A stretch of 64,000 nt of DNA from the IMG/VR virus record IMGVR_UViG_2913112809_000002; one strand, 5' to 3'. The notes beneath the pieces are model-generated. The model saw nothing but the letters and a program-made list of their open reading frames with translations. It was not told the origin of the DNA and made no database searches. Of this stretch, positions 13,473-36,083 are shown piece after piece. Origin of the DNA: a virus (Duplodnaviria > Heunggongvirae > Uroviricota > Caudoviricetes). Positions within the stretch are counted from its first letter, which is position 1. Every line of letters begins with the position of its first letter. A program made the position numbers and the translations under genes.

Positions 13473-13578
13473 AACACTTATGGCTATCCAGACTAAATTC
13501 ACTATCGCCACTTTTATTGGCGATGAAAAGATGTTTCGTGAGGCCGTCGAAGCCTACAGGAAATGGAGGTCAAAATGA
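13465..13578 (+). CDS. kil: Kil-like host-killing protein
   Basis: MDKTLMAIQTKFTIATFIGDEKMFREAVEAYRKWRSK; overlaps cIII end as in lambda. Confidence 0.55.
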   Translation: MDKTLMAIQTKFTIATFIGDEKMFREAVEAYRKWRSK

Positions 13579-13763
13579 TTCCGGTAGAACTGGCGAAAAC
13601 TCCAGAGTTAAGTCGATTAAAAAGAGAATATCACATTGCTGAGGCTCGTTACTGGCGTAAAGCGGGAGATAAATCAAAGAAACAACTTTGTTTATGGCAG
13701 GCACAAAGAGAGCGCATGAATGAGCGCGAGTTTCTTTCCTCCCCATCCGAATTACCATTCTGA
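13575..13763 (+). CDS. Hypothetical protein
   Basis: ATGA overlap with kil, SD ggagg. Confidence 0.35.
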   Translation: MIPVELAKTPELSRLKREYHIAEARYWRKAGDKSKKQLCLWQAQRERMNEREFLSSPSELPF

Positions 13764-13771
13764 GGCAAATT

Positions 13772-14452: not shown

Positions 14453-15036
14453 GCAACGTGATTTTTACTTATAACGAAGAAGCAGCACTGACCGCAGGAC
14501 AAGGTGGTTTTATTAATGAAACTGGCGCTCATATTATTACCATTACTGAAGCAGAACTAAAGCAATCAGAAAAAGGAGCCAAATTTATTGAGTTTTCTGG
14601 AGAATCCGACGACGGACGTAAAATCCAATATCTTAGCGTTTGTGTTCAGAAAAATGACGGCACGGAAAACAAATTTGGCGCAAATGTCGTTCACGCCATG
14701 ATGGGGTGTGCCGGGATTGGGCAATTAACGCAACATATGGTTTCCGCCAGTAAATTTGTTGCACCTGAATTTCATGGAAAGAAAATCGGGTTAGTGCTCC
14801 AGAAAGTATTAACCACAAACAAAAAGACTGGCGCAGACAGCTACCAGATGGAAATACGCATCCCGTTTATTGCACAAACAGGTCAAACCCTTAAAGAAAA
14901 GGCGGAAGGCAAGCAACCAGAAACTATCGCCAACATGGTTGCCAGCCTCAAAGATAAAGACAATCGCTCTAAAAACGTAAGCCAGAATCATGCAGATGAT
15001 TATGGTTACAGCCAGAACGATTACCCTCCTTTCTGA
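14449..15036 (+). CDS. Hypothetical protein (DUF669-like partner of AAA_24 ATPase, by recollection)
   Basis: 195 aa, translationally coupled to the ATPase. Confidence 0.4.
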   Translation: MSNVIFTYNEEAALTAGQGGFINETGAHIITITEAELKQSEKGAKFIEFSGESDDGRKIQYLSVCVQKNDGTENKFGANVVHAMMGCAGIGQLTQHMVSASKFVAPEFHGKKIGLVLQKVLTTNKKTGADSYQMEIRIPFIAQTGQTLKEKAEGKQPETIANMVASLKDKDNRSKNVSQNHADDYGYSQNDYPPF

Positions 15037-15059
15037 TTATTGAAAATAAGGCTCCCATT

Positions 15060-15356
15060 ATGCCAGCGCCTCTGTATGGTGCGGATGACCCGCGCCGCTG
15101 TTCCGGCAATTCCGTATTGGAGGTGCTGGATAAATTCAGAAAAAACTACGACCTGATAATGTCGCTACCGCAGGAAACGAAAGAGGAAAAGGAATTTCGC
15201 CATTGTATATGGCTTGCAGAGAAAGAAGAACGCGAGCGAATTTACCAGACATTAATCCGACCATTCCGCAAAGCCACATATACCCACTTCCCTGAATATA
15301 TCGACTCGCGCCTACGTAATTACCGCTCACGCTATGGCGCTATCAGTAATGACTGA
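15060..15356 (+). CDS. Hypothetical protein
   Basis: 98-aa ORF. Confidence 0.35.
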
Positions 15357-15543
15357 GGAATTTACCATGAGAGGACTTGCATACAATCCCGGCATTCTTC
15401 CGGCAGAAATGATTATTCGCCAACGCGTAAAGCCAATGCCATCAAGAGAGGAATTACTTAAGAGAAATAGTTTCGGTTCTGTTAACGACAACAGATATCT
15501 TGAAATGATTTTGAGGAGTAAGAAGGATTATGTCAAAAAATGA
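15334..15543 (+). CDS. Hypothetical protein
   Basis: 69-aa ORF. Confidence 0.3.
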
Positions 15544-16108
15544 CATTTCATATGAATACCTCATTAGCAACATTCACTACGATAAAGAAACTGGGGTTTT
15601 CAAGAAGATAATTAAATCAAATAATGGGGATATAATTGGTTTCAAACCAACTGGCTGTACGCACTCGATGGGATACATAAGGATATATATTAATAAAAAA
15701 TGGTATTTAGCGCACAGACTAGCTTGGTTATATGTTACCGGGAAATGGCCAGTAAATGTAATTGATCACATCAACAGAAATAAAGCTGACAACAGGTTTA
15801 TTAACCTACGAGATGTCTCCAGTAGGGAAAACAATAGCAATACAAGTAGAAATAAAGGAACTGAAATAGGCACAGAAAGGTGTGCTTATGGATGGAGAGC
15901 ATACATAGGTGTTAATGGAAAACTACATCACCTTGGCTCATATGCAACATGTGATGGTGCAAAATATGCGTATGCTCTAGCAAAATATCAAGTAGAAATA
16001 TATGGTTACCTGCGCCCCACACCAATCGATTGCAGAAAATTAAATTACGGAAACAGGGGGAATCGTAATGGAAATCCTAAATCAAACCGTCGCAAGTTCC
16101 ATCAGTGA
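15530..16108 (+). CDS. HNH homing endonuclease
   Basis: [16 protein letters not shown]...[20 protein letters not shown] motif; AT-rich insertion-like. Confidence 0.75.
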
Positions 16109-16631
16109 ATCAAAACAAATATCTGAATGCGATGTGGCGGAGTGGGAAGAAATGAAACAAATGTCACTAATTGAGATGGATGGATTTCTGAAAGGTAAAT
16201 GCATCCCAAGTGATTTAAAGGTTAACGAAACAAACGCTGAATATCTGGTGCGTAAATTTGCTGAAGCAGAGGCCAAGTGCGCGGCGCTGGCAGCGGAGAA
16301 TGCGAGACTGAAGGTGATGTGTGAGGACCGCCGCAGGTTCATCATGAAAGGGGTGCAACTGGGGTATATCAAGGTGCCAAAAGCGGAAACAGATCCGGAC
16401 CTTGAGACAATTCGCATTGCTATATCACCACAAAAGCCCATTCCAGCCACCGATGCTTTCCTGGCTGAAGTACGGGCGCAGGGCGTGGAGATGCTGGCAA
16501 AAAATCATCAGAGTATCGTCAATGCACTTAAGGGAGATTCTTTATTTTCTGATGGTGAATACCGACATGCAGCTATTGTTTCCGCAGCTGTATATTTCGC
16601 CGCCCAGCTTCGCAAAGGAGGCAACCAGTGA
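16068..16631 (+). CDS. Ea22-like protein, N/middle part
   Basis: Shares ALAAENARLK..CDDRRRFIM..VQLG.IK...ETIRIAISPQKP motif with 62794..63372. Confidence 0.45.
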   Translation: MEILNQTVASSISESKQISECDVAEWEEMKQMSLIEMDGFLKGKCIPSDLKVNETNAEYLVRKFAEAEAKCAALAAENARLKVMCEDRRRFIMKGVQLGYIKVPKAETDPDLETIRIAISPQKPIPATDAFLAEVRAQGVEMLAKNHQSIVNALKGDSLFSDGEYRHAAIVSAAVYFAAQLRKGGNQ

Positions 16632-17113
16632 CTGGACATGCAACAATCCTCGACATGTGCTGTGGCAGTCGCATGTTCTGGTTCGATAAGAATGACGACC
16701 GGGCGATATTTAGCGATATCAGAAAAGAAGAGCACACATTGTGTGATGGACGACGCCTGATTATCAGTCCTGACCTGATAGCAGATTTTCGAGCATTACC
16801 ATTTGCAGACGCATCGTTTCCGGTTGTTGTATTCGACCCTCCGCATCTTGAGCGTGTTGGTGATAAAGCCTGGATGGGAAAGAAATATGGACGGCTGAAT
16901 AAAGATACCTGGCGTGATGATTTGCGGCAGGGATTTAAAGAAGCCTTTCGTGTGTTGTGGCCACATGGCGTTATGATTTTTAAATGGAATGAAACACAAA
17001 TACCTGTTCGCCAGATATTGGCACTGACCGACAGAAAGCCTGTTATCGGTCAACGAACAGGAAAGGGTGACAAGACCCACTGGATTATTTTTATGAAGGA
17101 GGGCAACCAGTGA
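16628..17113 (+). CDS. Putative DNA methyltransferase
   Basis: SAM-binding-like DMCCGSRMF and catalytic-like VVVFDPPH motifs; GTG start. Confidence 0.5.
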   Translation: MTGHATILDMCCGSRMFWFDKNDDRAIFSDIRKEEHTLCDGRRLIISPDLIADFRALPFADASFPVVVFDPPHLERVGDKAWMGKKYGRLNKDTWRDDLRQGFKEAFRVLWPHGVMIFKWNETQIPVRQILALTDRKPVIGQRTGKGDKTHWIIFMKEGNQ

Positions 17114-17310
17114 GCAAGATTGACTACCAGGAATTGGCTGCTGCTAACGCTTTCTTGGCGGATGTGCGGGCTGGGGCGTTTAACGACCTTTGCGCGGCGT
17201 TTGTCAGGAACGCAAAAATTGCAGGACTGGACGATGGCGATCTCGTTACGGTGAAAGAAGCGACCGATGCTCTGCTGCATTGTGTGGAACAGCTTCGCGC
17301 TCCAGAATAA
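17110..17310 (+). CDS. Ea22-like protein, short C-terminal form
   Basis: MSKIDYQ...AFNDLCAAFVRNAKIAGLDD...DALLHCVEQLRAPE homologous to ends of 62794..63372. Confidence 0.45.
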   Translation: MSKIDYQELAAANAFLADVRAGAFNDLCAAFVRNAKIAGLDDGDLVTVKEATDALLHCVEQLRAPE

Positions 17311-17840
17311 TTAAATTTAGTACTGTAAATAAAATTTAATCCTTAACCGGAGGGATTTCTGCACCCTCAGAACATCAGGAGGCCGCCCGAAAGGGCGGTA
17401 ATAAAAATGGCAGAATTAACTAAAGAATGGTTGCAACAAACAATTACTGATATTCAGGTCAATTGAGGTGAGAAACGCGGATGGAAAATTGTTTAGTGCC
17501 GTATCTGGTGCGGTTCGGGGCGTCGTCGTTAACAGTTGTGCCGCATGTCCTGGTGGCTGACAACGTCATCCCGGCACCGAAACGTCGTACCGGTATTGCA
17601 GCGGCACGCCGTGCAGCAAAGAAACGCAGGAGAGCAAAGCGATGAAAAACCGTAAAGCAAAACTGCTTACAGCAAAGCCCGGGCAGCTTATCCGCATCTC
17701 AAATCGACTTGTTGTTCGTTATGCGCCTTCTGGCCTTGCCAGGTGGTTACCAACGCATTTTTACGGTGTCAGGCGACGTAGAAGTGCGGCACAAAACCGC
17801 TGGAGAAATCACGGTTCTAGGCAAATTAAATGGGAGTGAT

Positions 17841-18059
17841 ATGACTACACTATTCAGGAAAAATTATCCGCGAAAGAGCAGAGCAACAGAATTCCTGTTT
17901 CTCATTCTGTTTATCGTGTTGATGATACCGATATCCCCGTTAATTCTGGTATGGGGAATCGGGAAAATAATTGAGCCAGTTATTGAATTGTATAACGACG
18001 TGGTATGGGCGTCGTTCAACGCACTACACAATAAAATTAATCCGTATAAGGAAAACTGA
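17841..18059 (+). CDS. Small membrane protein
   Basis: 72 aa from MTTLFRKNYP..., TM FLFLILFIVLMIPISPLILVWGIG, SD before ATG. Confidence 0.35.
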   Translation: MTTLFRKNYPRKSRATEFLFLILFIVLMIPISPLILVWGIGKIIEPVIELYNDVVWASFNALHNKINPYKEN

Positions 18060-18060
18060 T

Positions 18061-18591
18061 ATGACCACTATTACGAGAGAAAGCGCGGAGATTAAATCAT
18101 TCATCACTGGCTTCCTGAGCGACGCGGCGCACGATAACCAATCGTCAAACAGTCTGCTTGCTAATGTGTTTCGTATCGCACTGGCATCGCTGGAAGCAGA
18201 GCCGGTGGCGTGGAAGGCAACCTTCACGCAAATTGACAATGAATATAATACGTTCACTGCTCTGTATTCTGACAAAGCAGAAGTCGAACGGTGGGTGCGA
18301 CTGCATGAAATAGGTGACTTTCGGGCAGAAATAACACCGCTTTATACAGCCCAACCAGCGCCGGTAGCTCCAGATGGTTGGATAAGCTGTAGTGATGCAG
18401 TTCCTGCGGAATACTGCGATGTGATTCTTCGCGATGATCTCGGGAATGTATTCCCCGGTTCCTGGGATAAGGTTTTTTGCCCCATTCGTGGCGGGAATAA
18501 GATGGCTTTTGTGGACAAAGACGGCATCGAAGTAGAGAGCTCAACTCACTGGATGCCGCTACCGGAACCACCGCAGGAGGTGAATCGATGA
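18061..18591 (+). CDS. DUF551-like early-left protein
   Basis: MTTITRESAEIKSF...IALASLEAEPVAWK...; paralog of 63470..64000. Confidence 0.55.
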   Translation: MTTITRESAEIKSFITGFLSDAAHDNQSSNSLLANVFRIALASLEAEPVAWKATFTQIDNEYNTFTALYSDKAEVERWVRLHEIGDFRAEITPLYTAQPAPVAPDGWISCSDAVPAEYCDVILRDDLGNVFPGSWDKVFCPIRGGNKMAFVDKDGIEVESSTHWMPLPEPPQEVNR

Positions 18592-18755
18592 CCTGGCCTG
18601 AAGCATTCACAACGGTAGGAATTGCAATGGCGGTGGCGCTGGTGGTGTATTCGATTTGCCGCTGGGGTTGACGTAATTACTAATCCGGGGCTATATTTCC
18701 GACGCGCCAGCAAAATCTGGCGTCGGGATTAGCACCCCGGATGTTTACGGAGCGA

Positions 18756-18781
18756 TATGAGACGCGCCCGCGTCTTTTTTT
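18756..18781 (+). terminator. Intrinsic terminator ending early-left operon
   Basis: agacgcg-ccc-cgcgtct hairpin followed by T7. Confidence 0.55.
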
Positions 18782-18945
18782 CATATCGTTTGCACAGTCA
18801 CATTCGCGATTTATGGCGGGCTGTGTGGGGGAGCCGAAAGGCTCGCCGGTTTCCGTACCCGGTAGTGCTAACCCCGCACAGTTCGCCACCACGATGATTA
18901 GCACCTGACGGTGGCGATAATGTCCAAATGTACGGAGTAATCGTT

Positions 18946-19504
18946 ATGACCACTCAGATTTCTGTCGAAACTCTTTCCCCAATTACACACAACCAAATTC
19001 CCGTTATCACTACCGAGTTACTGGCACAGCTTTACTGTACCGAGATCAACAACATCAAAGTAAATTACACCCGTAATTCCGAGCGTTTTGTTGAGGGTAA
19101 ACACTTTTTCAAGATTGTTGGTGATGAGTTGAAAAAATTTGCGGGTTACTTTAAGTAACTCACAAACGCCTGTTTCCCCCAAAACCCGCTCCCTCATCCT
19201 CTGGACAGAACGCGGAGCAGCCCGCCACGCAAAAATGCTGGAAACCGAGCAGGCGTGGGAAGTGTTCGAAAAACTGGAAGACTGTTATTTCAGTCAGAAA
19301 CGCCCGGAAGAAAAAGCACCGGATTTTATGCCACGCCGCTTTCTTCTCACTCTGGTCAATAACCAGTGGTATGTTGAGCCTGTGTCTGCTGATGCGTTTG
19401 TGGCAACGCCGGACTCACTGGTGGCCAGGCTTCAGGCCGAGAGATATCTGTTCGATCAGCAGAGCATAAAGGAGATCATCCAGACCTGCCTGAAGATGAT
19501 TTAA
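18946..19504 (+). pseudogene. ORF6N/Rha-type antirepressor-like gene split over two frames
   Basis: First frame ends ...GDELKKFAGYFK*, second frame continues ...RSLILWTERGAARHAKMLETEQAWEVFEKLED. Confidence 0.35.
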
Positions 19505-19768
19505 AAATTCATTCCGATATGGGAATCCCCATATCGGGAGAATATTACCACCGGGGATAAAATGATTTGCGGTGAAAGGGAAGTTAAGTAGAATTGCTGC
19601 GGGTGCTTGAGGCTATCTGCCTCGGGCATGAATACCAACGGCAGATAGAGAAAAGCCCCAGTTAACATTACGCGTCCTGCAAGACGCTTAACATTAATCT
19701 GAGGCCATATCTATGCGACACATAGAGATTAGCCTCTTACGGACCGAAAGGTCAAGGAGAAGCAGGCT

Positions 19769-19924
19769 ATGAAGCAGCAAAAGGCGATGTTAATCGCCCT
19801 GATCGTCATCTGTTTAACCGTCATAGTGACGGCACTGGTAACGAGGAAAGACCTCTGCGAGGTACGAATCCGAACCGGCCAGACGGAGGTCGCTGTCTTC
19901 ACAGCTTACGAACCTGAGGAGTAA
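19769..19924 (+). CDS. hok: Hok/Gef family type I toxin
   Basis: Manual translation MKQQKAMLIALIVICLTVIVTALVTRKDLCEVRIRTGQTEVAVFTAYEPEE (51 aa). Confidence 0.85.
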   Translation: MKQQKAMLIALIVICLTVIVTALVTRKDLCEVRIRTGQTEVAVFTAYEPEE

Positions 19925-19993
19925 GAGTGACCAGGCGAGGGAGAAATCCCTCGCCGCCTCTGACGTGTCAGGCATTCTCAAAGCACCCGCACT

Positions 19994-20025
19994 TAACCCG
20001 CTTCGGCGGGTTTTGTTTTTTTCTG
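19994..20025 (+). terminator. Terminator-like hairpin after hok
   Basis: cccgcttcggcggg hairpin followed by T-run. Confidence 0.45.
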
Positions 20026-20093
20026 GCATTCTGGTTTACAATCCACTCGTCAGCCTGAACAACTGACACCTGCTGCGCCAGCAGAGAAAACCG

Positions 20094-20372
20094 ATGGCGC
20101 AAAATTCCAGACCACACAATTCTGATAATTCAGCCGTCTTTGCCAGCAGGCACGGGCGGCGTTCCCGCACATTCAAATCTGACTGGTTCCAGCACGACCC
20201 ATGCACTGAAGAACAAGCCGAATGGCTAATTCAGAACTACCGCAGACGTGGGTATGAGTTTCAGAAAGACCTCAGTCTTGACTTCCGACACTGGATAATC
20301 TCAGTCAGGCTGCCGTACTCCGAGCGCCCACCGCGTCCATCCCGCACATTCCAGCAACGGATCTGGAGGTAA
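20094..20372 (+). CDS. Hypothetical protein (position of rem in Qin-type prophages)
   Basis: 92-aa ORF after hok. Confidence 0.4.
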   Translation: MAQNSRPHNSDNSAVFASRHGRRSRTFKSDWFQHDPCTEEQAEWLIQNYRRRGYEFQKDLSLDFRHWIISVRLPYSERPPRPSRTFQQRIWR

Positions 20373-20373
20373 T

Positions 20374-20934
20374 GTGAGAGCATTACTGACACCTGAAATT
20401 GCCCCGCGTATGGGGATCGTACTGTTCAGGCCAGGTTCAGAGCTGATGCCATTGTTTATGCAGGGGCGTGTCTTGCTGGAGCCTGAGCCGGAACGTTATT
20501 CATCTTTTGCCAGTGGTGTCGTTCCGGCGGCATCGCAACCGCTGGCGGATGATCCTGTCGTTCGGGCCGTATTCCGCAATGAGGCAGTGATCCGTCGTGC
20601 AGGTGGCGTGGAATGCCTTGAAAGCTGGTTACTTCGTGAAAAAGGCTGTCAGTGGCCTCATTCTGACTGGCACAGCGAGAACATGACCACAATGCGTCAC
20701 GCGCCGGGAGCAATCCGTTTGTGCTGGCACTGCGATAATCAACTGCGCGATCAGTTCACAGAACGGTTGGAATCAATGGCAACGGATAACTGCGTCCGTT
20801 GGGTGTTGTCTGTTGTCCGTCGGGATCTCGGTTTTGATGAAAGTCACGTTGTGACAATGCCGGAACTGTGTTGGTGGCTGGTTCGTAATGACCTGGCGGA
20901 TGCCTTACCTGAAAGCGCAGCCCGTAGGCTCTGA
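20374..20934 (+). CDS. DUF968-like protein, N-terminal portion
   Basis: 186-aa ORF; may be first half of a split ydfU-like gene. Confidence 0.4.
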   Translation: MRALLTPEIAPRMGIVLFRPGSELMPLFMQGRVLLEPEPERYSSFASGVVPAASQPLADDPVVRAVFRNEAVIRRAGGVECLESWLLREKGCQWPHSDWHSENMTTMRHAPGAIRLCWHCDNQLRDQFTERLESMATDNCVRWVLSVVRRDLGFDESHVVTMPELCWWLVRNDLADALPESAARRL

Positions 20935-20951
20935 GATTACCGAAGCCTGCT

Positions 20952-21362
20952 GTGCAGTCTGTCACTCGGGAAAGTGACCTCGTACCTTCAGTTCCGGCCA
21001 CCAGCATCATCCAGGATAAAGCGAAAAAGGTGCTGGCGCTGAAAGTGGATCCGGAATCGCCGGAGTCTTTTATGTTACGCCCCAAACGTCGCCGCTGGGT
21101 TAACGAAAAGTACACGCGCTGGGTTAAGACACAGCCGTGTGCATGTTGTGGTAAGCCAGCCGACGATCCCCATCACCTGATTGGTCACGGTCAGGGAGGG
21201 ATGGGGACAAAAGCCCACGATATTTTCACGCTACCGCTGTGCCGGGAGCATCACAACGAACTTCATGCTGATCCGCTGGCATTTGAAGAAAAGCATGGTT
21301 CCCAGATTGATTTAATTTTTCGTTTTCTTGATCACGCCTTTGCAACCGGCGTGCTTGGGTAA
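20952..21362 (+). CDS. DUF968-like C-terminal portion with HNH-like Cys/His motif
   Basis: CACCGKPADDPHHLIGHGQGG...CREHHNELH; frame differs from upstream ORF; true start uncertain. Confidence 0.4.
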   Translation: MQSVTRESDLVPSVPATSIIQDKAKKVLALKVDPESPESFMLRPKRRRWVNEKYTRWVKTQPCACCGKPADDPHHLIGHGQGGMGTKAHDIFTLPLCREHHNELHADPLAFEEKHGSQIDLIFRFLDHAFATGVLG

Positions 21363-21374
21363 AAGAGGTTACTG

Positions 21375-21734
21375 ATGCGTATAGAGTTTGTTTTGCCTTA
21401 CCCGCCGACGGTGAACACCTACTGGCGACGTCGTGGCAGCATATATTTTGTATCAAAAGCCGGTGAGCGTTATCGCCGTGATGTGGCGCTTATTGTTCGT
21501 CAGCAGCGGCTGAAATTAAACCTGTCCGGAAGGCTGGCGATAAAGATTATTGCAGAGCCACCGGATAAGCGCCGTCGTGACCTGGACAATATTCTGAAAG
21601 CTCCACTGGATGCGCTGACGCATGCCGGACTACTCATAGACGACGAGCAGTTTGATGAAATCAATATTGTGCGCGGTCAGCTCGTTCCTGGTGGGCGGCT
21701 GGGGATAAAAATCACAGAACTGGAGTGCGCATGA
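21375..21734 (+). CDS. rusA: Holliday junction resolvase RusA
   Basis: 119 aa with DKRRRDLDN...LIDDEQ RusA motifs. Confidence 0.85.
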   Translation: MRIEFVLPYPPTVNTYWRRRGSIYFVSKAGERYRRDVALIVRQQRLKLNLSGRLAIKIIAEPPDKRRRDLDNILKAPLDALTHAGLLIDDEQFDEINIVRGQLVPGGRLGIKITELECA

Positions 21735-22420
21735 ATAACCAGTATTTACAGTTTGTTCGTGAGCAACTCATGATTGCCACCGCCGATTTGAGTGGAGCAA
21801 CAAAAGGACAGCTTGAGGCCTGGCAGGAGAATGCCATGCTTGAAACAGGGCGTTACAGGCGTAAAAAAATCCGGTACCGCGATGAAGTGACCGGAAAAAT
21901 GATAACGCGGGATAATCCACCAATCCCGGGAAAACAATCGCTTGCGAAAGGTTCGTCAATTCCTCTGGTAAGTCAGGTTGAGTTTTCGACATCATCATGG
22001 CGACGGGCAGTTCTGTCTCTTGAAGAACATCATAAAGCCTGGTTGTTGTGGTGTTACAGCGGCAGCATTTGCTGGGAACACCAGATCGCGATAACGCAGT
22101 GGGTGTGGAATGAATTTAACGCACAATCCGGTACCAGAAAAATTGCAGGGAAAACGCTGGAGCGCCTGAAAAAATTAATCTGGCTGGCGGCACAGGATGT
22201 CAGAGGATGGATTACCGGGCGTGAGGTCTACCAGCGACAGGAACTTGCCAGGCTGTGTGGAATTAAACCTGACAACTGGAGCCATAATTATGCGAACTAC
22301 TGGCGTGAGATGTGCGACATTTTTAAGAATCTTGATACAGAATCCTTGATTTGCACAGTGAAAATGAGAACGCAACAAAAAGCGACCTTTTCGCGACGAG
22401 ATGTTGCAAAAATCAATTAA
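21725..22420 (+). CDS. Late antiterminator Q-like protein (Qin quuQ-type)
   Basis: 231 aa; position before terminator, tRNAs and lysis genes. Confidence 0.6.
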   Translation: MRMNNQYLQFVREQLMIATADLSGATKGQLEAWQENAMLETGRYRRKKIRYRDEVTGKMITRDNPPIPGKQSLAKGSSIPLVSQVEFSTSSWRRAVLSLEEHHKAWLLWCYSGSICWEHQIAITQWVWNEFNAQSGTRKIAGKTLERLKKLIWLAAQDVRGWITGREVYQRQELARLCGIKPDNWSHNYANYWREMCDIFKNLDTESLICTVKMRTQQKATFSRRDVAKIN

Positions 22421-22484
22421 ATCGCGTACATTTCGTGTAAATTTGATATTTTGCCGATTTTATACGCGATGGCAAAGCAAGCAA

Positions 22485-22510
22485 AACCCGCCGCCGAGCG
22501 GGTTTTTTTA
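22485..22510 (+). terminator. tR'-like terminator after second Q
   Basis: cccgc-cgccgagc-gggtt hairpin followed by T7. Confidence 0.5.
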
Positions 22511-22744
22511 TGTCCGCAAAATGGCGTGGAAGAAAAAATTAATCAGATTGTAACTGAGATAAAAAACAATCGTTAAATATGCATTTAATAATTTCTTTAT
22601 TTCATAAAAAATAAAAACATATACGTATATTTACAAATCTTGATATGATTTTCCATTGAAAAGAGAGCTGGTATTATTAATATCGGTCCCCGGTTCCGAA
22701 GGGGATGTAAGCGCGGTCATTTTTATTTCTCTTGAGGAACCAAT

Positions 22745-22820
<76 letters not shown>

Positions 22821-22823
22821 TAT

Positions 22824-22898
<75 letters not shown>

Positions 22899-23120
22899 TA
22901 GTAGTAAGGCGAGATTGTGTTATGCACTGACACATTATATATGTGGGGATGGTTTTTGGCCTCTTTATCCACGTCCCGTTCTGTAATGAGTGATACCAAT
23001 TGCAGTCCAGTGCTATTTTTTTACACCATCGGAATGGTGCATCATCCCGATGTTGTAAACATCGCTAAACGTGACATTGAGATTAATCATATATTAATCA
23101 AAATCTGGTAATACATCCTT

Positions 23121-23148
23121 AACCGCCGAACCAGGCGGTTTTTTTTAT
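23121..23148 (+). terminator. Intrinsic terminator after tRNA pair
   Basis: accgcc-gaacca-ggcggt hairpin followed by T9. Confidence 0.55.
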
Positions 23149-23420
23149 TTCTTCTCCGGACAAAAAAAAGACACGAGCATCCTGGAATACTCGTGGGACA
23201 AGGTACTTGGTTAGCAATTTGCGAGAGGGTGAAAAAAATGGCGCGGCTGTCGGATTAAAGCCGCGGGACAAAGTCCATGAAGAATAATAAGTATCAGTCT
23301 CCTACAGGAGACGAGTTGATATTACTAAGCTTTAAAAATGGTTTAAATCCTCAGATTAACCTTAATTTCAGGTAAGTCTTATTTCATTTCTTCGCGCCGC
23401 GCCCGGCGCACATCAAAAAC

Positions 23421-23524
23421 CACAGAGCCTTTCAGGGGTGAGCTTACGGGATGGTCAGTGTGACTTTCTCTGTGGGCTGGTCACTCCTGGGGCGCAGGCT
23501 CACCCACTAAAAGGAAAAGTCACG
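23421..23524 (+). promoter_or_regulatory. Conserved ~100-nt leader element, copy B1
   Basis: Homologous to 25646..25754 and to minus-strand 640..760. Confidence 0.45.
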
Positions 23525-23950
23525 ATGTTTGGTATTTTCAAAAAGAAAACCCGCAAGGCCATTACCGAAGTGAAGAAGATGGAGAACCGCGACGCAGTGG
23601 AGGCGACCGTCTGGGGTGCGTATTCCATTGCATACGCTGACGGCACCTGTGACGCGAAAGAAATCGCGGTACTGGAGAAAACCATTGCAGCACTTCCTGC
23701 CTTTGCGCCGTTCTCCGGTGAGATTGCACAAATGAGCGCAAATATCCGCGCCCGTTATGAAGCGTCACCGCGTAGCGCGAATGCTCAGGCATTGCGTGAA
23801 CTGGCTGATGTGGCAGGAACAGACGACGCGGTGAATGTGCTGTGCCTGTGTCTGGATATCGCTGACCAGGATGGAATTGGTCCGGAGGAAGAAGCACAAC
23901 TCAAGAAAATTGCTCAGGCGCTTCAGCTACCGCTGGAGCAGTACCTGTGA
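23525..23950 (+). CDS. TerB-like domain protein (cargo between tRNAs and lysis genes)
   Basis: 141 aa MFGIFKKKTRKAITEVKKMENRDAVEATVWGAYSIAYADG..., helical; TerB assignment from recollection only. Confidence 0.45.
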   Translation: MFGIFKKKTRKAITEVKKMENRDAVEATVWGAYSIAYADGTCDAKEIAVLEKTIAALPAFAPFSGEIAQMSANIRARYEASPRSANAQALRELADVAGTDDAVNVLCLCLDIADQDGIGPEEEAQLKKIAQALQLPLEQYL

Positions 23951-24037
23951 AAAGTGCGCGCCTTGTGCTGGCTGCCATCCTGCTGTTTCTGGTAGTGGCG
24001 GTGGATTTCACCGGACGGCTGATGTCGGTGCTGGCAG

Positions 24038-24583
24038 ATGGTGTGCTGGTGGCGATGGTGCTGGTCGTGCTCCGGCCTTTACTGCGCAAATCTGAATAAC
24101 ACCACACAAAAGGCATCTGCGGGTGCCTTTGACGGGGTGTTGTTTTTTACGGGCCGCTGGTGGCCCTTTTTTATTTGCAGGAGAAGTTATGGCAGCAGAA
24201 CCTTGTCTGGTGGCGGGGCGGTGGGGCTGACGATAGGTGGAGCCAGTGTATTCGGGATTCTGACCAACACCGATTTCGGCGTGGTTATTGGCGCGTTTGC
24301 AGGGGCGCTTTTTGTTGTCACACAGCAAAAGGAAGTGCCTGTCTGGCGGATGTGTATCCACCTGCTGGTTGCTTTCGTGGTTGGCGTACTTGGTGCGGGT
24401 GTGGCTGCGTCTTTCATGCAGTGGTTAACGCACTACGACGACAAGCCACTGGACGCTCTGTGTGCGGTTGGTGTTTCAGCCCTGTCAATTAAGGCGCTGA
24501 CGTTCCTGTATCAGCAGGAGATTACATCGCTGTTCGGTTTTCTGACGAAGCTGCGCGGCGGAGGAGGAGGAAATGGTAAGTGA
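24038..24583 (+). CDS. Membrane protein (2-3 TM), possible holin/antiholin; start uncertain
   Basis: Hydrophobic segments; good RBS+ATG at 24189 is in a different frame. Confidence 0.3.
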   Translation: MVCWWRWCWSCSGLYCANLNNTTQKASAGAFDGVLFFTGRWWPFFICRRSYGSRTLSGGGAVGLTIGGASVFGILTNTDFGVVIGAFAGALFVVTQQKEVPVWRMCIHLLVAFVVGVLGAGVAASFMQWLTHYDDKPLDALCAVGVSALSIKALTFLYQQEITSLFGFLTKLRGGGGGNGK

Positions 24584-24848
24584 TGTTGCCGGGCAGGTGA
24601 ATGTATTCGTCTGTGTGGCTGTTGTGCTGGGATTGCTCGTGTTCCGGTGGAGGGATGCGGCCCACAAACCCGTCATGGCCTGGCTGACTTATCTGCTGAT
24701 GCTGGGATACGCAATTATTCCGCTGCGCTGGCTTTACGGTACCTACATGCAGTCGAGCTGGCTGGTCGTGGTGCTGAATCTTGTTTTCTGCGCACTGATA
24801 GTCTGGTCGCGTGGAAACGTATCAAAAATTATTTCATTACGGAGGTGA
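24573..24848 (+). CDS. Putative holin (three TM helices)
   Basis: 91 aa, SD ggagga before ATG, immediately upstream of endolysin. Confidence 0.45.
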   Translation: MVSDVAGQVNVFVCVAVVLGLLVFRWRDAAHKPVMAWLTYLLMLGYAIIPLRWLYGTYMQSSWLVVVLNLVFCALIVWSRGNVSKIISLRR

Positions 24849-24850
24849 GT

Positions 24851-25228
24851 ATGCCGGGGAAATTCAGATTCAGTCGTCGTAGCGAAAAAAATCTGGAGGG
24901 CGTCAAACCACAGCTGGTTGCCGTTGTTCGCCGTGCGCTGGAACTGACGGATGTTGATTTCGGTATTACGGAAGGTCTGCGCACGAAAGAACGCCAGAAA
25001 CAGCTGGTTGCTGAAGGAAAAAGCCAGACCATGAACAGCCGCCACCTGACCGGTGATGCGGTGGATGTTGTGGCCTACATTGGCAGCCAGGTGTCATGGG
25101 ACTGGCCTCTGTACGAGAAAATCGCGCATGCATTTAAGCAGGCTGCCGCAGAGCTGGGAACTGCCATCGAATGGGGTGGGGACTGGCGGACGCTTAAAGA
25201 CGGCCCACATTTTCAATTGAAACGATAG
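24851..25228 (+). CDS. Endolysin, peptidase M15 family (L-alanyl-D-glutamate peptidase type)
   Basis: MPGKFRFSRRSEKNLEGVKPQLVAV...H..D..DV...W.DGPHFQL motifs. Confidence 0.7.
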   Translation: MPGKFRFSRRSEKNLEGVKPQLVAVVRRALELTDVDFGITEGLRTKERQKQLVAEGKSQTMNSRHLTGDAVDVVAYIGSQVSWDWPLYEKIAHAFKQAAAELGTAIEWGGDWRTLKDGPHFQLKR

Positions 25229-25298
25229 CTTGCAAAACATACAGGGCCGCCATGAGCGGCTTTTTTATTGCTCAAAAAACGAAAGAACGGAGGTACGT

Positions 25299-25580
25299 AT
25301 GTACGCACTGAAAAAAATTACGGTAACTGAAGATGGTCGCCAGGTTGAGGAAGTGCATGTCCTGGGGGATATGTATCGTCTGGAATTTTACCCGCGTAAT
25401 ACCCATCTTGCAGCGCAGGTTGAGTATTGTCGGGACGGGAATATTCCATGCATTTCTGTAGAAAAAACGGATGAGGCTTATATCACTACGCTGAATGGCG
25501 ATACGGTGCGTTGCATTTGTCGCGGTGACAGCAAAGCCCGGAATGAAATAGCCAGATGTCGCGCCCATACAGATAAATAA
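25299..25580 (+). CDS. Hypothetical Cys-rich protein
   Basis: 93 aa, between terminator-like hairpins. Confidence 0.35.
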   Translation: MYALKKITVTEDGRQVEEVHVLGDMYRLEFYPRNTHLAAQVEYCRDGNIPCISVEKTDEAYITTLNGDTVRCICRGDSKARNEIARCRAHTDK

Positions 25581-25645
25581 AAAGCAAAATACAAGGCTGC
25601 AACGAGTGGCCTTGTTTATCTCAGCACTTCGCACGGTGCGCATAA

Positions 25646-25754
25646 AACAGAGAATCTTTCAGGATGAGCCTTGAGGAAAACCGGTAGTGGTCTGGTTAAC
25701 CCTCTCTGGCTGGTTATTCCTGTGCGCAAGGTTCATCACTAAAAGGAATAAACC
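25646..25754 (+). promoter_or_regulatory. Conserved ~100-nt leader element, copy B2
   Basis: Homologous to 23421..23524; ends at ATG of antirepressor. Confidence 0.45.
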
Positions 25755-26450
25755 ATGAACGAGATGATTTCTGTCGATCATGAAATATCCATGAGCAGTC
25801 TGGACTTCCTGAATAACATTATTAATCCAGCTCGTATAGAGGCTGGAGAAGTCCCTCACGAACCGCGTAAGTTTCTTGCAAAAATTGAAGACGAGCTTGA
25901 GCTTGATGGAACCGGAAAAAAATTCCGGTTAAACAATAACCAGACAAGAACAGCATATTACGATCTGGACTTCGACCAAATGATGCTCGTTGGCATGAGA
26001 GAGTCTAAGGCTGTTCGGCGTTCTGTGCTGGCAAGACTTAAAGCGATGCACGGTATACAAATTCCTCAGACCTTACCTGATGCATTGCGATTTGCGGCAA
26101 AATTGGCAGAGCAAAAAGCAGAGCTGGAAAATAAACTGGCAATAGCGGCACCGAAAGCTGAATTTGTTGATAATTATGTTGAGGCATCCGGCCTGATGGG
26201 GTTCAGGGAGGTTGCTAAATTGCTCGGTATTAGAGAAACCGATTTCCGGCTGTTTTTGCTGGAGAACGGCATAATGTATCGTCTTGCCGGAAAAATGACG
26301 CCTTACTCACATCACCTGGATGCTGGTCGTTTTAGCGTGAAAACCGGAGAAGCAGGCAATGGTCATGCTTTTACACAGGTTAAGTTCACTCCAAAAGGCA
26401 TTCAGTGGGTTGCTGGCTTGATCGCTGCTTGGAGAGCCACCGCAGCATGA
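25755..26450 (+). CDS. Antirepressor-like protein (KilA-C-type C-terminal domain)
   Basis: 231 aa; C-terminal FVDNYVEASGLMGFREVAKLLGIRETDFRLFLLENGIMY. Confidence 0.6.
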   Translation: MNEMISVDHEISMSSLDFLNNIINPARIEAGEVPHEPRKFLAKIEDELELDGTGKKFRLNNNQTRTAYYDLDFDQMMLVGMRESKAVRRSVLARLKAMHGIQIPQTLPDALRFAAKLAEQKAELENKLAIAAPKAEFVDNYVEASGLMGFREVAKLLGIRETDFRLFLLENGIMYRLAGKMTPYSHHLDAGRFSVKTGEAGNGHAFTQVKFTPKGIQWVAGLIAAWRATAA

Positions 26451-26543
26451 ACACGAAACAAACATACTGGAAGTTTTTACTCATATGGATAATTCCATTC
26501 TTGTGGGTGCGGCCCAATTGATTACAGCCATTAAGGGATAAAC

Positions 26544-26678
26544 ATGTCGGATAAAATGGTAAAGCTGGCACAGATCCTCTGTGTGATAACTGGTCTTTCA
26601 TTTTCGGTAATGCTGGTGGCTATTTTCATTTCCACAGCCTGGATGGCGTTGAGTTCATCCGGATTGATTGGTGGATAG
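26544..26678 (+). CDS. Small membrane peptide (44 aa)
   Basis: MSDKMVKLAQILCVITGLSFSVMLVAIFISTAWMALSSSGLIGG; SD before ATG. Confidence 0.3.
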   Translation: MSDKMVKLAQILCVITGLSFSVMLVAIFISTAWMALSSSGLIGG

Positions 26679-26682
26679 CGAG

Positions 26683-26865
26683 ATGAAGCGGAAGCACTGG
26701 ACACACAGAATGCCTCGAGCGGCGGCAAAATGGGCACTGGTAGCGATACCGGTGCCTTTTTTATTGGCGGGATGCGTCAGCCTAGATAAGGCGCGTCAGC
26801 TTTTCGATACGGCTTCTCAGGTTTGCCAGCTTATTGATGGCGTTCGGCGGTGCACACAGAATTGA
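26683..26865 (+). CDS. Putative small lipoprotein
   Basis: Lipobox LLAGC after a basic N-terminus; weak RBS. Confidence 0.35.
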   Translation: MKRKHWTHRMPRAAAKWALVAIPVPFLLAGCVSLDKARQLFDTASQVCQLIDGVRRCTQN

Positions 26866-27789
26866 TCGCTTGTAAGAGTAGAATATTTTGCTGAAAAATG
26901 AAGGGTGCGCCAGCGTCCGGAAAGCATGAAATTCTGTGTTTGTGGCTACTCAATAAAATAAATTCTTTCTGTCGCCGCGAATACTCAAATGTTGATCAGT
27001 GCCCGGTGCGGCGACGGGCTTCGATATCAGGAGACGATGATGGAAGCAACAGAAGATGATCGTCATCCTGGTTGTCCGGTATTTGCCTGCATGAAATTAC
27101 CGGAAGGCGCAGTCGTTACTAAGTAACAGGCATTACAGCAGCCCTTCTGTGAGGGGCTGCGATAATGCAACACAGGAATAAAAACCGGCCAGGGAGAATC
27201 CGTTAAAGGTCTGCCGGTGGCGAAAGATAGCCAAGGCGTCAACTTACGCTATTGCTCATGGTGATGCAATGCATCGCCCTAATGAAGTTAATAGATCTCT
27301 GATTTATCTCTGCGCGTCGTATCGTCGCCGTATTCCCGCATTAACAGAGACCGCAGCCCGATGGGAAGCTCTTCTGCGCGAGTGTGCAGGAATAATCAAA
27401 AACGATGCACACCGGGTTTTTACCGCGCTATTGATTCGCGGGTTTGTCCCTCATGCTCGCCAGTCCTGTGCGAGGTTGGAAGAAACAGGGCATGTATTCA
27501 GGAGCGTGCGACCGTGGTCGCACGGTATCTTTGTCAGGAGGTTGTGATGAAAGAGTCGCAGAAATTTAATTCAAAAATGGAACGATTCAGTTCTCCTGAG
27601 CGAGAGGCTTACAACATGCATTCATTGAGTGCCTGTTGTAATATCGCCAAACATTAATCAGGTGCACGAGATGTCGGCTAATACTGACCCTGACGAAATG
27701 TGGCGCTGCTTTAATCTGAAAGATGGTGCAGACGACCTGTAGTTCGCATCCATTCCTGATTACCCTATTCAAGTTGATGAGACAGAAAC

Positions 27790-28035
27790 ATGACAGCTGC
27801 TAAAGAGCAGATTGAATATGAGCTAAATGTATTCTTCGCGTCCGCCCTTGGTGATGTGTTTAAAAGTTGCCGACTGGCTGAAAGCGTATTGGATTACCAG
27901 ATTTCTACTGTTAGTTTTCCAACGGAAAAAAACGCCTGGCTGGAGCTAGGTGAATTACCCGTGATTATCGAGTTGTCTAACGGACGTCGCTTTGAGATTA
28001 GTGCGTCTGAATGGTTGCAAATCACACCGCTTTAA
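27790..28035 (+). CDS. Hypothetical protein near cos
   Basis: 81-aa ORF upstream of cos. Confidence 0.3.
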   Translation: MTAAKEQIEYELNVFFASALGDVFKSCRLAESVLDYQISTVSFPTEKNAWLELGELPVIIELSNGRRFEISASEWLQITPL

Positions 28036-28111
28036 ATTAAGCCCGCTGCCCACCTTGGCTACAGGCATACGCTTAGTGGCTGGGTCCTTTCCGGCGATCC
28101 GGCAGGCTACG

Positions 28112-28123
28112 GGGCGTCAGGCG
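28112..28123. other. cos: cosN-like cohesive-end site (gggcgtcaggcg), with lambda-like cosB flank
   Basis: Flank cgcgggttttcgctatttatgaaaaatttccggtttaaggcg matches lambda left end as recalled; 12-mer differs from lambda GGGCGGCGACCT. Confidence 0.55.
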
Positions 28124-28300
28124 CGCGGGTTTTCGCTATTTATGAAAAATTTCCGGTTTAAGGCGTTTCCGTTCTTCTTCGTCGTAACTTAATGTTTTTA
28201 TTTAAAACACCCCCTGAAAAGAAAGGAAACGACAGGTGCTGAAAACGGGCTTTTTGGCCTCTGTCGTTTCCTTTCTCTGTTTTTGTCCGTGGAATGAACA

Positions 28301-28820
28301 ATGGAAGTCAACAAAAAGCAGCTGGCTGACATTTTCGGCGCGAGTATCCGTACCATTCAGAACTGGCAGGAGCAGGGAATGCCCGTTCTGCGAGGCGGTG
28401 GGAAGGGTAATGAGGTGCTTTATGACTCTGCCGCCGTCATAAAATGGTATGCCGAAAGGGATGCTGAAATTGAGAACGAAAAGCTGCGCCGGGAGGTTGA
28501 AGAACTGCGACAGGCCAGCGAGACAGATCTCCAGCCAGGGACTATTGAGTACGAACGCCATCGACTTACGCGTGCGCAGGCCGACGCACAGGAGCTGAAA
28601 AATGCCAGAGACTCCGCTGAAGTGGTGGAAACTGCATTCTGTACTTTCGTGCTGTCGCGGATCGCAGGTGAAATTGCCAGTATTCTCGACGGGATCCCCC
28701 TGTCGGTGCAGCGGCGTTTTCCGGAACTGGAAAACCGACATGTTGATTTCCTGAAACGAGATATCATCAAAGCCATGAACAAAGCATCCGCGCTGGATGA
28801 ACTGATACCGGGGTTGCTGA

Positions 28821-28846
<26 letters not shown>
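28301..28846 (+). CDS. Nu1: Terminase small subunit Nu1
   Basis: MEVNKKQLADIFGASIRTIQNWQEQGMPVLRGGGKGNEVLYD... matches lambda Nu1. Confidence 0.95.
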
Positions 28847-32527
<3,681 letters not shown>

Positions 32528-32547
<20 letters not shown>

Positions 32548-33847
32548 TCTCCCGCATATTGCCAGTATGGCCTTTAATGAGCCGCTGATGCTTGAACCCG
32601 CCTATGCGCGGGTTTTCTTTTGTGCGCTTGCAGGCCAGCTTGGGATCAGCCGCCTGACGGATGCGGTGTCCGGCGACAGCCTGACTGCCGGAGAGGCACC
32701 CGCGACGCTGGCGTTATCCGGTGATGATGGCGGGCCACGACAGGCCCGCAGTTATCAGGTCATGAACGGCATCGCCGTGCTGCCGGTGTCCGGCACGCTG
32801 GTCAGCCGGACGCGGGCGCTGCAGCCGTATTCGGGGATGACCGGTTACAACGGCATTATCGCCCGTCTGCAACAGGCTGCCAGTGACCCGATGGTGGACG
32901 GCATTCTGCTCGATATGGATACGCCAGGCGGAATGGTGGCGGGGGCATTTGACTGCGCTGACATCATCGCCCGTGTGCGTGACATAAAGCCGGTATGGGC
33001 GCTGGCCAACGACATGAACTGCAGTGCAGGTCAGCTGCTTGCCAGTGCCGCCTCCCGGCGTCTGGTCACGCAGACCGCACGGACAGGCTCCATCGGCGTC
33101 ATGATGGCTCACAGTAATTACGGTGCTGCGCTGGAGAAACAGGGCGTGGAAATCACGCTAATTTACAGCGGCAGCCATAAGGTGGATGGCAACCCCTACA
33201 GCCATCTTCCGGATGACGTCCGGGAGACACTGCAGTCCCGGATGGATGCAACCCGCCAGATGTTTGCGCAGAAGGTGTCGGCATATACCGGCCTGTCCGT
33301 GCAGGCTGTGCTGGATACCGAGGCTGCAGTGTACAGCGGTCAGGAGGCCATTGATGCCGGACTGGCTGATGAACTTGTTAACAGCACCGATGCGATCACC
33401 GTCATGCGTGATGCACTGGATGCACGTAAATCCCGTCTCTCAGGAGGGCGAATGACCAAAGAGACTCAATCAACAACTGTTTCAGCCACTGCTTCGCAGG
33501 CTGACATCACCACCGTGGTGCAAGCGACGGAGGGCGAAAACGCCAGCGCGGCGCAGCCGGACGTGAACGCGCAGATCACCGCAGCGGTTGCGGCAGAAAA
33601 CAGCCGCATTATGGGGATCCTCAACTGTGAGGAGGCCCACGGACGCGAAGAACAGGCACGCGTGCTGGCAGAAACCCCCGGAATGACCGTGGAAACGGCC
33701 CGCCGCATTCTGACCGCAGCACCACAGAGTGCACAGGCGCGCAGTGACACTGCGCTGGATCGTCTGATGCAGGGGGCACCGGCACCGCTGGCTGCAGGTA
33801 ACCCGGCATCTGATGCCGTTAACGATTTGCTGAACACACCAGTGTAA
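32528..33847 (+). CDS. C: Capsid assembly protease C (Nu3 scaffold nested at 3' end)
   Basis: GTG start giving (M)TAELRNLPHIASMAFNEPLMLEPAYARVFF... as lambda gpC. Confidence 0.8.
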
Positions 33848-33856
33848 GGGATGTTT

Positions 33857-34189
33857 ATGACGAGCAAAGAAACCTTTACCCATTACCAGCCGCTGGGCAA
33901 CAGTGACCCGGCTCATACCGCAACCGCGCCCGGCGGATTGAGTGCGAAAGCGCCTGCAATGACCCCGCTGATGCTGGACACCGCCACCCGTAAGCTGGTT
34001 GCGTGGGATGGCACCACCGACGGTGCTGCCGTTGGCATTCTGGCGGTCGCTGCTGACCAGACCAGCACCACGCTGACGTTCTACAAGTCCGGCACGTTCC
34101 GTTATGAGGATGTGCTCTGGCCGGAGGCTGCCAGCGACGAGACGAAAAAACGGACCGCGTTTGCCGGAACGGCAATCAGCATCGTTTAA
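33857..34189 (+). CDS. D: Capsid decoration protein D
   Basis: [41 protein letters not shown]... Confidence 0.9.
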
Positions 34190-34244
34190 CTTTACCCTTC
34201 ATCACTAAAGGCCGCCTGTGCGGCTTTTTTTACGGGATTTTTTT

Positions 34245-35270
34245 ATGTCGATGTACACAACCGCCCAGCTGCTGGCGGCAAATGAGCAGAAATTTAAGTT
34301 TGATCCGCTGTTTCTGCGTCTCTTTTTCCGTGAGAGCTATCCCTTCACCACGGAGAAAGTCTATCTCTCACAAATTCCGGGACTGGTAAACATGGCGCTG
34401 TACGTTTCGCCGATTGTTTCCGGTGAGGTTATCCGCTCCCGTGGCGGCTCCACCTCTGAATTTACGCCGGGATATGTCAAACCCAAGCATGAAGTGAATC
34501 CGCAGATGACCCTGCGTCGCCTGCCGGATGAAGATCCGCAGAATCTGGCGGACCCGGCTTACCGTCGCCGTCGCATCATCATGCAGAACATGCGTGACGA
34601 AGAGCTGGCCATTGCCCAGGTCGAAGAGATGCAGGCAGTTTCTGCCGTGCTTAAGGGCAAATACACCATGACCGGTGAAGCCTTCGATCCGGTTGAGGTG
34701 GATATGGGCCGCAGTGCGGCGAATAACATCACGCAGTCCGGCGGCACGGAGTGGAGCAAGCGTGACAAGTCCACGTATGACCCGACCGACGATATCGAAA
34801 CTTACGCGCTGAACGCCAGCGGTGTGGTGAATATCATCGTGTTTGACCCGAAAGGCTGGGCGCTGTTCCGTTCCTTCAAGGCCGTCAGGGAGAAGCTGGA
34901 TACCCGTCGCGGCTCTCATTCCGAGCTGGAGACAGCGGTGAAAGACCTGGGTAAAGCGGTGTCCTATAAGGGGATGTATGGCGATGTGGCCATCGTCGTG
35001 TATTCCGGACAGTACGTGGAAAACGGTGTCAAAAAGAACTTCCTGCCGGACAACACGATGGTGCTTGGGAACACTCAGGCACGCGGTCTGCGCACCTATG
35101 GCTGTATTCAGGATGCGGATGCATTGAGTGAGGGTATTAATGCGTCTCCTCGTTATCCGAAAAACTGGAAGACATCCGGCGATCCGGCGCGTGAGTTCAC
35201 CATGATTCAGTCAGCACCGCTGATGCTGCTGGCTGATCCTGATGAGTTCGTGTCCGTACAACTGGCGTAA
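34245..35270 (+). CDS. E: Major capsid protein E
   Basis: MSMYTTAQLLAANEQKFKFDPLFLRLFFRESYPF... Confidence 0.95.
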   Translation: MSMYTTAQLLAANEQKFKFDPLFLRLFFRESYPFTTEKVYLSQIPGLVNMALYVSPIVSGEVIRSRGGSTSEFTPGYVKPKHEVNPQMTLRRLPDEDPQNLADPAYRRRRIIMQNMRDEELAIAQVEEMQAVSAVLKGKYTMTGEAFDPVEVDMGRSAANNITQSGGTEWSKRDKSTYDPTDDIETYALNASGVVNIIVFDPKGWALFRSFKAVREKLDTRRGSHSELETAVKDLGKAVSYKGMYGDVAIVVYSGQYVENGVKKNFLPDNTMVLGNTQARGLRTYGCIQDADALSEGINASPRYPKNWKTSGDPAREFTMIQSAPLMLLADPDEFVSVQLA

Positions 35271-35311
35271 TCATGGCCCTTCGGGGCCATTTTCTCTCTG
35301 TGGAGGAGTCC

Positions 35312-35707: not shown

Positions 35708-35718
35708 CGGGAGGCGCT

Positions 35719-36072: not shown

Positions 36073-36083
36073 AGGGAGGATGT

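Follow-up and report, generated by a model that had tools for sequence, protein, structure and literature searches.

A homopolymer miscall as the probable cause of a frameshifted holin gene in a phiP27-type lysis cassette of Escherichia sp. E4742

Introduction

The window, by which we mean the whole 64,000-nt stretch of viral DNA that was analyzed (IMG/VR record IMGVR_UViG_2913112809_000002), raises a simple question at its lysis genes: where does the first holin gene begin, and why does the best start signal in the region open the wrong frame? A GGAG Shine-Dalgarno sequence (24180-24183, + strand) is followed, after a 5-nt spacer, by an ATG at 24189-24191 (+ strand). The frame opened by this ATG, MAAEPCLVAGRWG, is ended after 13 codons by a TGA at 24228-24230, which lies within ggcggggcggtggggctga, and the 181-codon ORF that runs through the membrane-protein sequence (24038..24583) is in the -1 register relative to ATG 24189. 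A preliminary description of this DNA had reported the strong start signal out of register with the long ORF, and on this point the sequence is exactly as described. It had further called the lysis region atypical, and had offered a frameshift, a sequencing error, or an unusual start as possible explanations.

Results

Gene content of the lysis cassette

Two membrane-protein ORFs had been placed upstream of an M15 endolysin; they are indeed there, and profile searches assign both to holin families. The features of the region, with the site of the broken frame included, are as follows:

23525..23950, + strand: TerB-like 'tellurite resistance' moron gene (Pfam TerB 1.9e-07; phrog_632 9e-66)
23947..24099, + strand: DUF3927/TciB-like small membrane protein (Pfam DUF3927 3e-14; phrog_1470)
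24151..24175, + strand: terminator-like hairpin GGGCCGCTGGTGGCCC (24151-24166) and T run, directly upstream of the holin ribosome-binding site
24189..24583, + strand: Phage_holin_8 family holin gene; 395 nt in the window, 396 nt (131 aa) in the finished genome and relatives
24201-24202, + strand: site of the very probable miscall; CC in the window, CCC in the finished E4742 genome and all close relatives, codon 5 being an invariant Pro
24573..24848, + strand: second holin-like gene, Phage_holin_3_7 (PF05449 3.4e-16; phrog_217 2.4e-29), with three hydrophobic stretches
24851..25228, + strand: M15 metallopeptidase endolysin (Peptidase_M15_4 3.6e-12; phrog_465 2.5e-74)

The gene order is Q antiterminator, two tRNA genes, holin, holin, M15 endolysin, and a megablast search against complete E. 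coli genomes and phage records returned a phiP27-type cassette whose members are annotated as 'putative holin', 'phage holin family protein', and 'M15 family metallopeptidase'. The locus is an ordinary late-operon lysis cassette of a lambda-like prophage in Escherichia sp. E4742, and the phiP27-type module that it represents is known and widespread. The word atypical is inappropriate in any biological sense; in the finished E4742 genome the first holin gene is intact. In phiP27, the stx2e operon occupies the position of the TerB-like and DUF3927 genes (23525-24099), which here have the phage tRNA genes (22745-22898) on one side and the holin on the other.

The first holin is a small protein with multiple membrane segments, encoded directly upstream of an endolysin in a late operon, as is expected of a holin; on a Kyte-Doolittle scan, overlapping hydrophobic windows amount to about four stretches. 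The intact allele from E. coli E423 matches PF16931 (Phage_holin_8) with 81.8 bits against a cutoff of 26.4 (5.8e-23) and phrog_198 at 1.3e-37, and the product of the window's 181-aa ORF also matches PF16931. The second holin gene has its own GGAGGAGGAGGA ribosome-binding site and overlaps the end of the first by 11 nt. By hydropathy, the M15 endolysin has no hydrophobic N-terminus and thus should need a holin for export. If the usual holin/endolysin action applies, the endolysin would accumulate in the cytoplasm until the holin permeabilizes the inner membrane, through which it would then reach the cell wall. None of the six cassette proteins is covered by an NCBIfam model, and nothing was found in the literature under the family name Phage_holin_8.

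One base is missing from codon 5 of the first holin gene

ATG 24189 is the true holin start. The nearest relatives, those of E. coli E423 and NRZ103545 (96% identity), have a 396-nt first holin gene of 131 codons that begins at the same Shine-Dalgarno sequence and ATG, and by comparison one C is missing from codon 5 in the window, which reads GAACCTTG where the relatives read GAACCCTTG; there is thus CC at 24201-24202 in place of CCC. From 24203 onward, the window's codons specify residues 6-131 of the finished-genome holin, identically. The short frame does stop inside the G-rich run, as had been noted, but the frame is not broken there; the break is further upstream, at the C run of codon 5.

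Alignment of the N-termini of 18 family members, from Escherichia, Salmonella, Citrobacter, Cronobacter, Enterobacter, Pectobacterium, and others, yielded the pattern M-x-E-P-[L/I/V/F/A]-[S/T]-[G/S], which aligns to ATG 24189 and in which Pro5 is invariant (18/18). This N-terminus, read from the Shine-Dalgarno sequence and ATG, is absent from the window as written and present in the finished E4742 genome. The preliminary description had allowed that homologues might normally start at a downstream in-frame codon; since the family N-terminus aligns to ATG 24189 in all 18 members, they do not. Nor are frameshifted alleles a feature of the family, because the copies in viral contigs are near full length (in 64 of 69, one unbroken alignment covers at least 95% of the protein, and coverage is at least 88% in the remaining five) and because the gene is intact in all four of the complete E. 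coli genomes, out of 5426, that carry this holin variant. The 90%-identity cluster with intact 131-aa holins includes a representative found on 275 contigs. An exact-pattern scan of species-representative genomes for either allele, CC or CCC, gave no match and is thus silent on prevalence.

The long ORF is spurious in its 5' part (24038-24188), which does not code for the holin: it overlaps the 3' end of the DUF3927 gene and extends across the hairpin with its T run. The hairpin and T run at 24151..24175 likewise mark 24100-24188 as intergenic; the same sequence precedes the holin gene in homologues, and it forms part of the KanR_FW primer of a published construct (PMC12571312). Three product lengths have been annotated on the draft from which the window derives: 181 aa, 126 aa (from TTG 24203; PGAP, WP_167850656.1), and 120 aa (from GTG 24221), the latter two being annotated on a 115,753-bp contig. 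None of the three is the real holin protein.

Comparison of the draft and finished genomes of E4742

The window is identical to PDHY01000019.1 (GCA_004745255.1), a contig of the Ion Torrent draft of Escherichia sp. E4742, which belongs to cryptic clade II; the strain is given by the names of the proteins encoded on this contig. A finished genome of the same strain exists (GCA_005781185.1; 5,120,753 bp), and in it the holin gene has CCC and encodes an intact protein of 131 aa. With the finished DNA around three window genes, the two were compared over window positions 1-17808, 17588-36865, and 33613-53706, about 53.7 kb overall. Over this distance there were no substitutions and only nine one-base differences, at 9096, 10898, 18775, 19132, 20927, 23139, 23162, 24201, and 38760, every one of which is a difference in the length of a mononucleotide run. 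The integrity of a reading frame hinges on four of the nine, and at all four it is the draft that has the broken version. Apart from the holin site at 24201, these are:

19132: ORF6N protein; 185 aa in the finished genome, 70 + 121 aa in the draft
20927: DUF968 protein; 329 aa in the finished genome, 186 + 96 aa in the draft
38760: tape measure protein; 853 aa in the finished genome, 47 + 783 aa in the draft

It is very unlikely that a chance miscall would fuse two frames into a long conserved ORF, and the finished genome is thus judged correct at the four sites that decide an ORF. The finished sequence may not be beyond error either: at intergenic position 23139 the T8 of the draft matches an independent E. 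coli relative, whereas the T7 of the finished genome does not, which suggests that the latter may have homopolymer errors of its own in long runs, though not at the sites that matter here.

The E4742 draft (PDHY00000000) was assembled from Ion Torrent single-end reads at about 50x coverage, using MIRA and SPAdes; contigs were mapped to references, and repeats at contig ends were used for manual gap closure (PMC6639607). It was the most fragmented of the 16 genomes announced together (PMC6639607). The differences found above, one-base over- and under-calls in mononucleotide runs that generate spurious frameshifts in the absence of substitutions, are the same phenomenon as the known homopolymer errors of Ion Torrent sequencing. 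Indels of this type are the characteristic error of the platform.

Other read sets were also informative. A Logan re-assembly of SRR6148341, which is probably the Ion Torrent data set of E4742 (SRX3260361), shows not a single substitution against the window across 11.5 kb and makes the same CC call; it differs from the draft at the homopolymers at 696 and 10898. The recurrence of CC in an independent re-assembly means that it is no artefact of the assembler, and the discord at 696 and 10898 means that homopolymer lengths are unstable in those reads. Apart from having CCC, contigs from SRR9056840 and SRR6024549 show no difference from the window over 0.9-1.0 kb. Elsewhere SRR9056840, probably the read set behind the finished genome, agrees with the window throughout 5 kb; SRR6024549 is a different strain, with seven substitutions in 2.2 kb of the neighboring prophage. 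The CC allele was found only in the Ion Torrent draft and in the SRR6148341 run, which has no substitutions relative to that draft.

Origin of the frameshift

Taken together, the intact allele in the same strain, the restriction of draft/finished differences to homopolymer lengths, and the Ion Torrent platform make it very probable that CCC was under-called as CC in the draft and that the real holin gene is intact from ATG 24189; we infer that, of the two assemblies, it is the draft that is wrong at this site. Of the three explanations in the preliminary description, the one-nucleotide frameshift holds relative to every homologue and sequencing error is favored by the evidence as its cause, whereas the unusual start is rejected. 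Two points weigh against an artefact: a run of three bases is short for a consensus error at about 50x coverage, and CC was again obtained when the raw reads of SRR6148341 were re-assembled. That repetition is also what would be seen if one nucleotide had truly been deleted in the culture sequenced in 2017, leaving the first holin gene as a pseudogene specific to that subculture, with lysis either left to the second holin or blocked. Slippage in short mononucleotide runs is of course a genuine class of mutation, and a phenotype would be expected, since replacing the homologous holin region in an STEC strain abolished antibiotic-induced toxin release (PMC12571312). However, the draft contains eight further differences confined to homopolymers, at least three of which break other conserved ORFs, and nine true indels in 54 kb, scaled up to the whole genome, would mean roughly 850, a number that is hard to credit for two stocks of a single strain. 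The use of Ion Torrent speaks against a true deletion as well, and a genuine pseudogene should reappear when the strain is sequenced independently by a method with a low indel error, whereas the finished E4742 genome has CCC. We therefore regard a true deletion as quite unlikely. Were CC nevertheless real in one stock, which is the smaller possibility, the result would be a null first holin or one shortened at its N-terminus.

Two further explanations would accept the window's sequence as written. Translation might begin downstream of the deletion, at TTG 24203 (126 aa) or GTG 24221 (120 aa), either directly or through re-initiation once the 13-codon leader has been read. Annotation pipelines picked both codons, which are in frame; GTG 24221 lies 7 nt upstream of the leader stop, with a weak GGTG placed 8 nt ahead of it. 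Such a start could arise only if the deletion were real, and TTG 24203 is too far (19 nt) from the Shine-Dalgarno sequence; moreover, the family begins at the Shine-Dalgarno sequence and ATG with its conserved M-x-E-P-x-[S/T]-[G/S], and the finished genome carries a normal 131-aa gene. With CCC in the finished genome, a downstream start or re-initiation becomes superfluous, and we consider it hardly credible. A programmed -1 ribosomal frameshift joining the leader to the holin frame would fit the -1 register of the downstream frame and the G-rich stretch in which the leader ends, but the split arrangement occurs in no homologue examined, the finished genome of the same strain is in frame, and inspection of 24189-24230 by eye revealed no canonical X XXY YYZ slippery heptamer. 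With no split relative and no slippery site seen, this explanation was ruled out, its probability being negligible. The preferred reading remains an under-called C run in the draft, and its significance is mainly as a caution on draft data.

Relationship to phiP27 and to a genetically tested holin

The closest known counterpart of the cassette is that of the Stx2e phage phiP27 (NC_003356), in which L28 and L29 are holins and L30 is the endolysin; order and families (Phage_holin_8, Phage_holin_3_7, M15 endolysin) are shared. The phiP27 endolysin DNA is about 91% identical to that of the window, and the lipoprotein encoded downstream is 82% identical. The differences are that the window's first holin is a rarer variant, only about 54% identical to the common STEC316/P27-like type; that TerB and DUF3927 genes take the place of stx2e; and that an insertion of about 1.45 kb parts the endolysin from the lipoprotein gene in the window.

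A member of the common holin type has been tested experimentally, with toxin release as the readout. Van hoorde et al. (2025) replaced the holin WP_032083190 (130 aa) of a Stx2e prophage in porcine STEC, whereupon the release of Stx2e induced by enrofloxacin, a fluoroquinolone, was lost; a plasmid copy of the holin alone restored release (PMC12571312). This holin shares with that of the window its Pfam family, the upstream hairpin and Shine-Dalgarno sequence, and the position of its start codon, and the construct was cloned from the ATG equivalent to 24189 (PMC12571312). The primers of that study match the STEC316-type sequence, whose protein is only about 54% identical to the window's. Note that the homology arm of the reverse primer implies that the start of the second holin gene was also removed, and the knockout by itself was therefore not clean.

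The lipoprotein gene and the spanin question

No spanin gene directly follows the endolysin in the window, as the preliminary description had stated; nevertheless, the lipoprotein gene that lies farther downstream is the conserved fourth gene of the cassette, displaced by an insertion. The antirepressor, the 44-aa membrane peptide, and the lipoprotein were all located where they had originally been placed:

25299..26678, + strand: insertion of about 1.45 kb between endolysin and lipoprotein genes, relative to the commonest cassette
25299-25580, + strand: 93-aa protein, within the insertion
25755-26450, + strand: KilAC antirepressor, within the insertion
26544-26678, + strand: 44-aa membrane peptide, within the insertion
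26683..26865, + strand: conserved 60-aa lipoprotein; lipobox LAGC, 30-aa mature part; phrog_7528 1.6e-33

A relative of the lipoprotein is encoded on 234 viral contigs, of which the best 80 loci were taken (L023-L102). Among these best 80 of 234, 67 loci had enough upstream sequence, and Phage_holin_8 was present in 66 and Phage_holin_3_7 in 64 of the 67. At the loci with an M15 endolysin (44 among the same best 80), the lipoprotein gene starts 14-15 nt past the endolysin stop in 36; it is this short gap in most relatives that identifies the 1.45 kb in the window as an insertion. A second variant of the cassette has a different endolysin, which from its sequence reads as glycoside hydrolase 108-like, followed by a 44-aa peptide and then the lipoprotein. 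The window's 44-aa peptide is 75-77% identical to the peptide directly upstream of the lipoprotein in that variant, and is absent from most M15-type cassettes.

The lipoprotein has the features expected of an o-spanin, an outer-membrane lipoprotein: it is encoded in a lysis cassette and has a lipobox, LAGC, with Val at +2. Its mature part consists of 30 mostly helical residues with three cysteines, and the copies in phiP27 and in three E. coli relatives (L001, L002, and L003) are 80-88% identical. The phiP27 homologue was designated the o-spanin (20706-20861) of a 'separated' pair by Kongari et al. (2018), with the i-spanin at 20348-20542 from a TTG start; at 62 residues, the pair has the shortest combined periplasmic length in their survey (PMC6139136). 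In the phiP27 GenBank record the lipoprotein is unannotated, and L32 is an overlapping ORF in another frame.

Compared with two-component spanins such as lambda Rz/Rz1 and the 'separated' pair of phiP27, the window thus has a homologue of the o-spanin call and no counterpart of the i-spanin call: neither the window nor the three E. coli relatives contains a homologue of the phiP27 i-spanin ORF. Using the Rz of the neighboring prophage, tblastn found no relative in the 67 loci from the best 80 of 234, although this was a single query that a very divergent partner could escape. An i-spanin would be expected to combine an N-terminal membrane segment with a long periplasmic domain, which lets the pair bridge the periplasm. 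The 44-aa peptide is almost wholly hydrophobic (residues 5-42 in a hydropathy scan) and consequently has no long periplasmic domain. With a mature lipoprotein of 30 residues and no long periplasmic partner, the defining property of a canonical spanin is lacking, and the lipoprotein would seem too short to form a canonical complex that spans the periplasm. One might suppose that the cassette breaks the outer membrane without a canonical spanin, the lipoprotein then being a new outer-membrane lysis factor or no lysis protein at all, but we consider this doubtful. What remains mildly interesting is that a widespread cassette should have a lipoprotein of just 30 mature residues and lack any credible i-spanin.

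The neighboring prophage has a canonical S-R-Rz/Rz1 cassette of its own (858-2004, minus strand), comprising a Phage_holin_2_1 holin, a lysozyme, and an Rz with embedded Rz1. Downstream of it, at window positions 1-640 (minus strand), a KilA-N/ORF11CD3/DUF2570 gene overlaps a lipoprotein ORF with lipobox LSGC. The cassette lipoprotein gave a weak tblastn match at 36-164 (minus strand), which is likely just signal-peptide similarity to another lipoprotein ORF.

Contig structure and neighboring features

The window is not collinear with the finished genome. Positions 1-17808 belong to a different prophage, found at 68,954-90,330 of the finished genome, and the switch between prophages takes place at an exact repeat of about 220 bp (17588-17808) in an Ea22-like gene; the first prophage lies at about 0.07-0.09 Mb and the prophage under study at about 4.07-4.11 Mb. 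Relative to the finished genome, either the contig is a chimera or a large rearrangement has occurred. At the other end, 53647-53706, a tail(-fiber) end runs into a 60-nt att core and then an integrase gene (53847-54866, minus strand), an attP-type junction. From its sequence, the att core reads as the putative 3' part of a tRNA-Ser gene. Beyond this tail end, the finished genome continues with what is taken as the remainder of the tRNA gene, and hydrogenase genes come next. The neighbor of this integrase gene in E. coli relatives encodes a Bax1-I domain. Manual gap closure through repeats, as applied to the draft, fits both joins, but the attP-type join could instead represent excised circular phage DNA in the culture.

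Taken as a whole, the window has an odd layout: an early region from one prophage is joined to another prophage's late region, and tail genes then lead into an integrase. Decay of a defective prophage was considered as the cause of the frameshift and rejected, as the finished genome does not have this layout and contains a complete prophage with att sites at its ends. In the draft behind the window, a homopolymer is miscalled about once per 6 kb, and at least two joins made through repeats depart from the finished genome; any frameshift, split gene, or odd gene order in the window needs to be checked against that genome.

Two minor features of the prophage were noted. A 45-aa ORF at 26989-27126 matches the N- and C-terminal ends of phiP27 L33 (115 aa) with the middle missing, and looks like an internal-deletion remnant of that gene. 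A Hok/Gef-family toxin gene (51 aa) is present at about 19769-19924, in the nin region.
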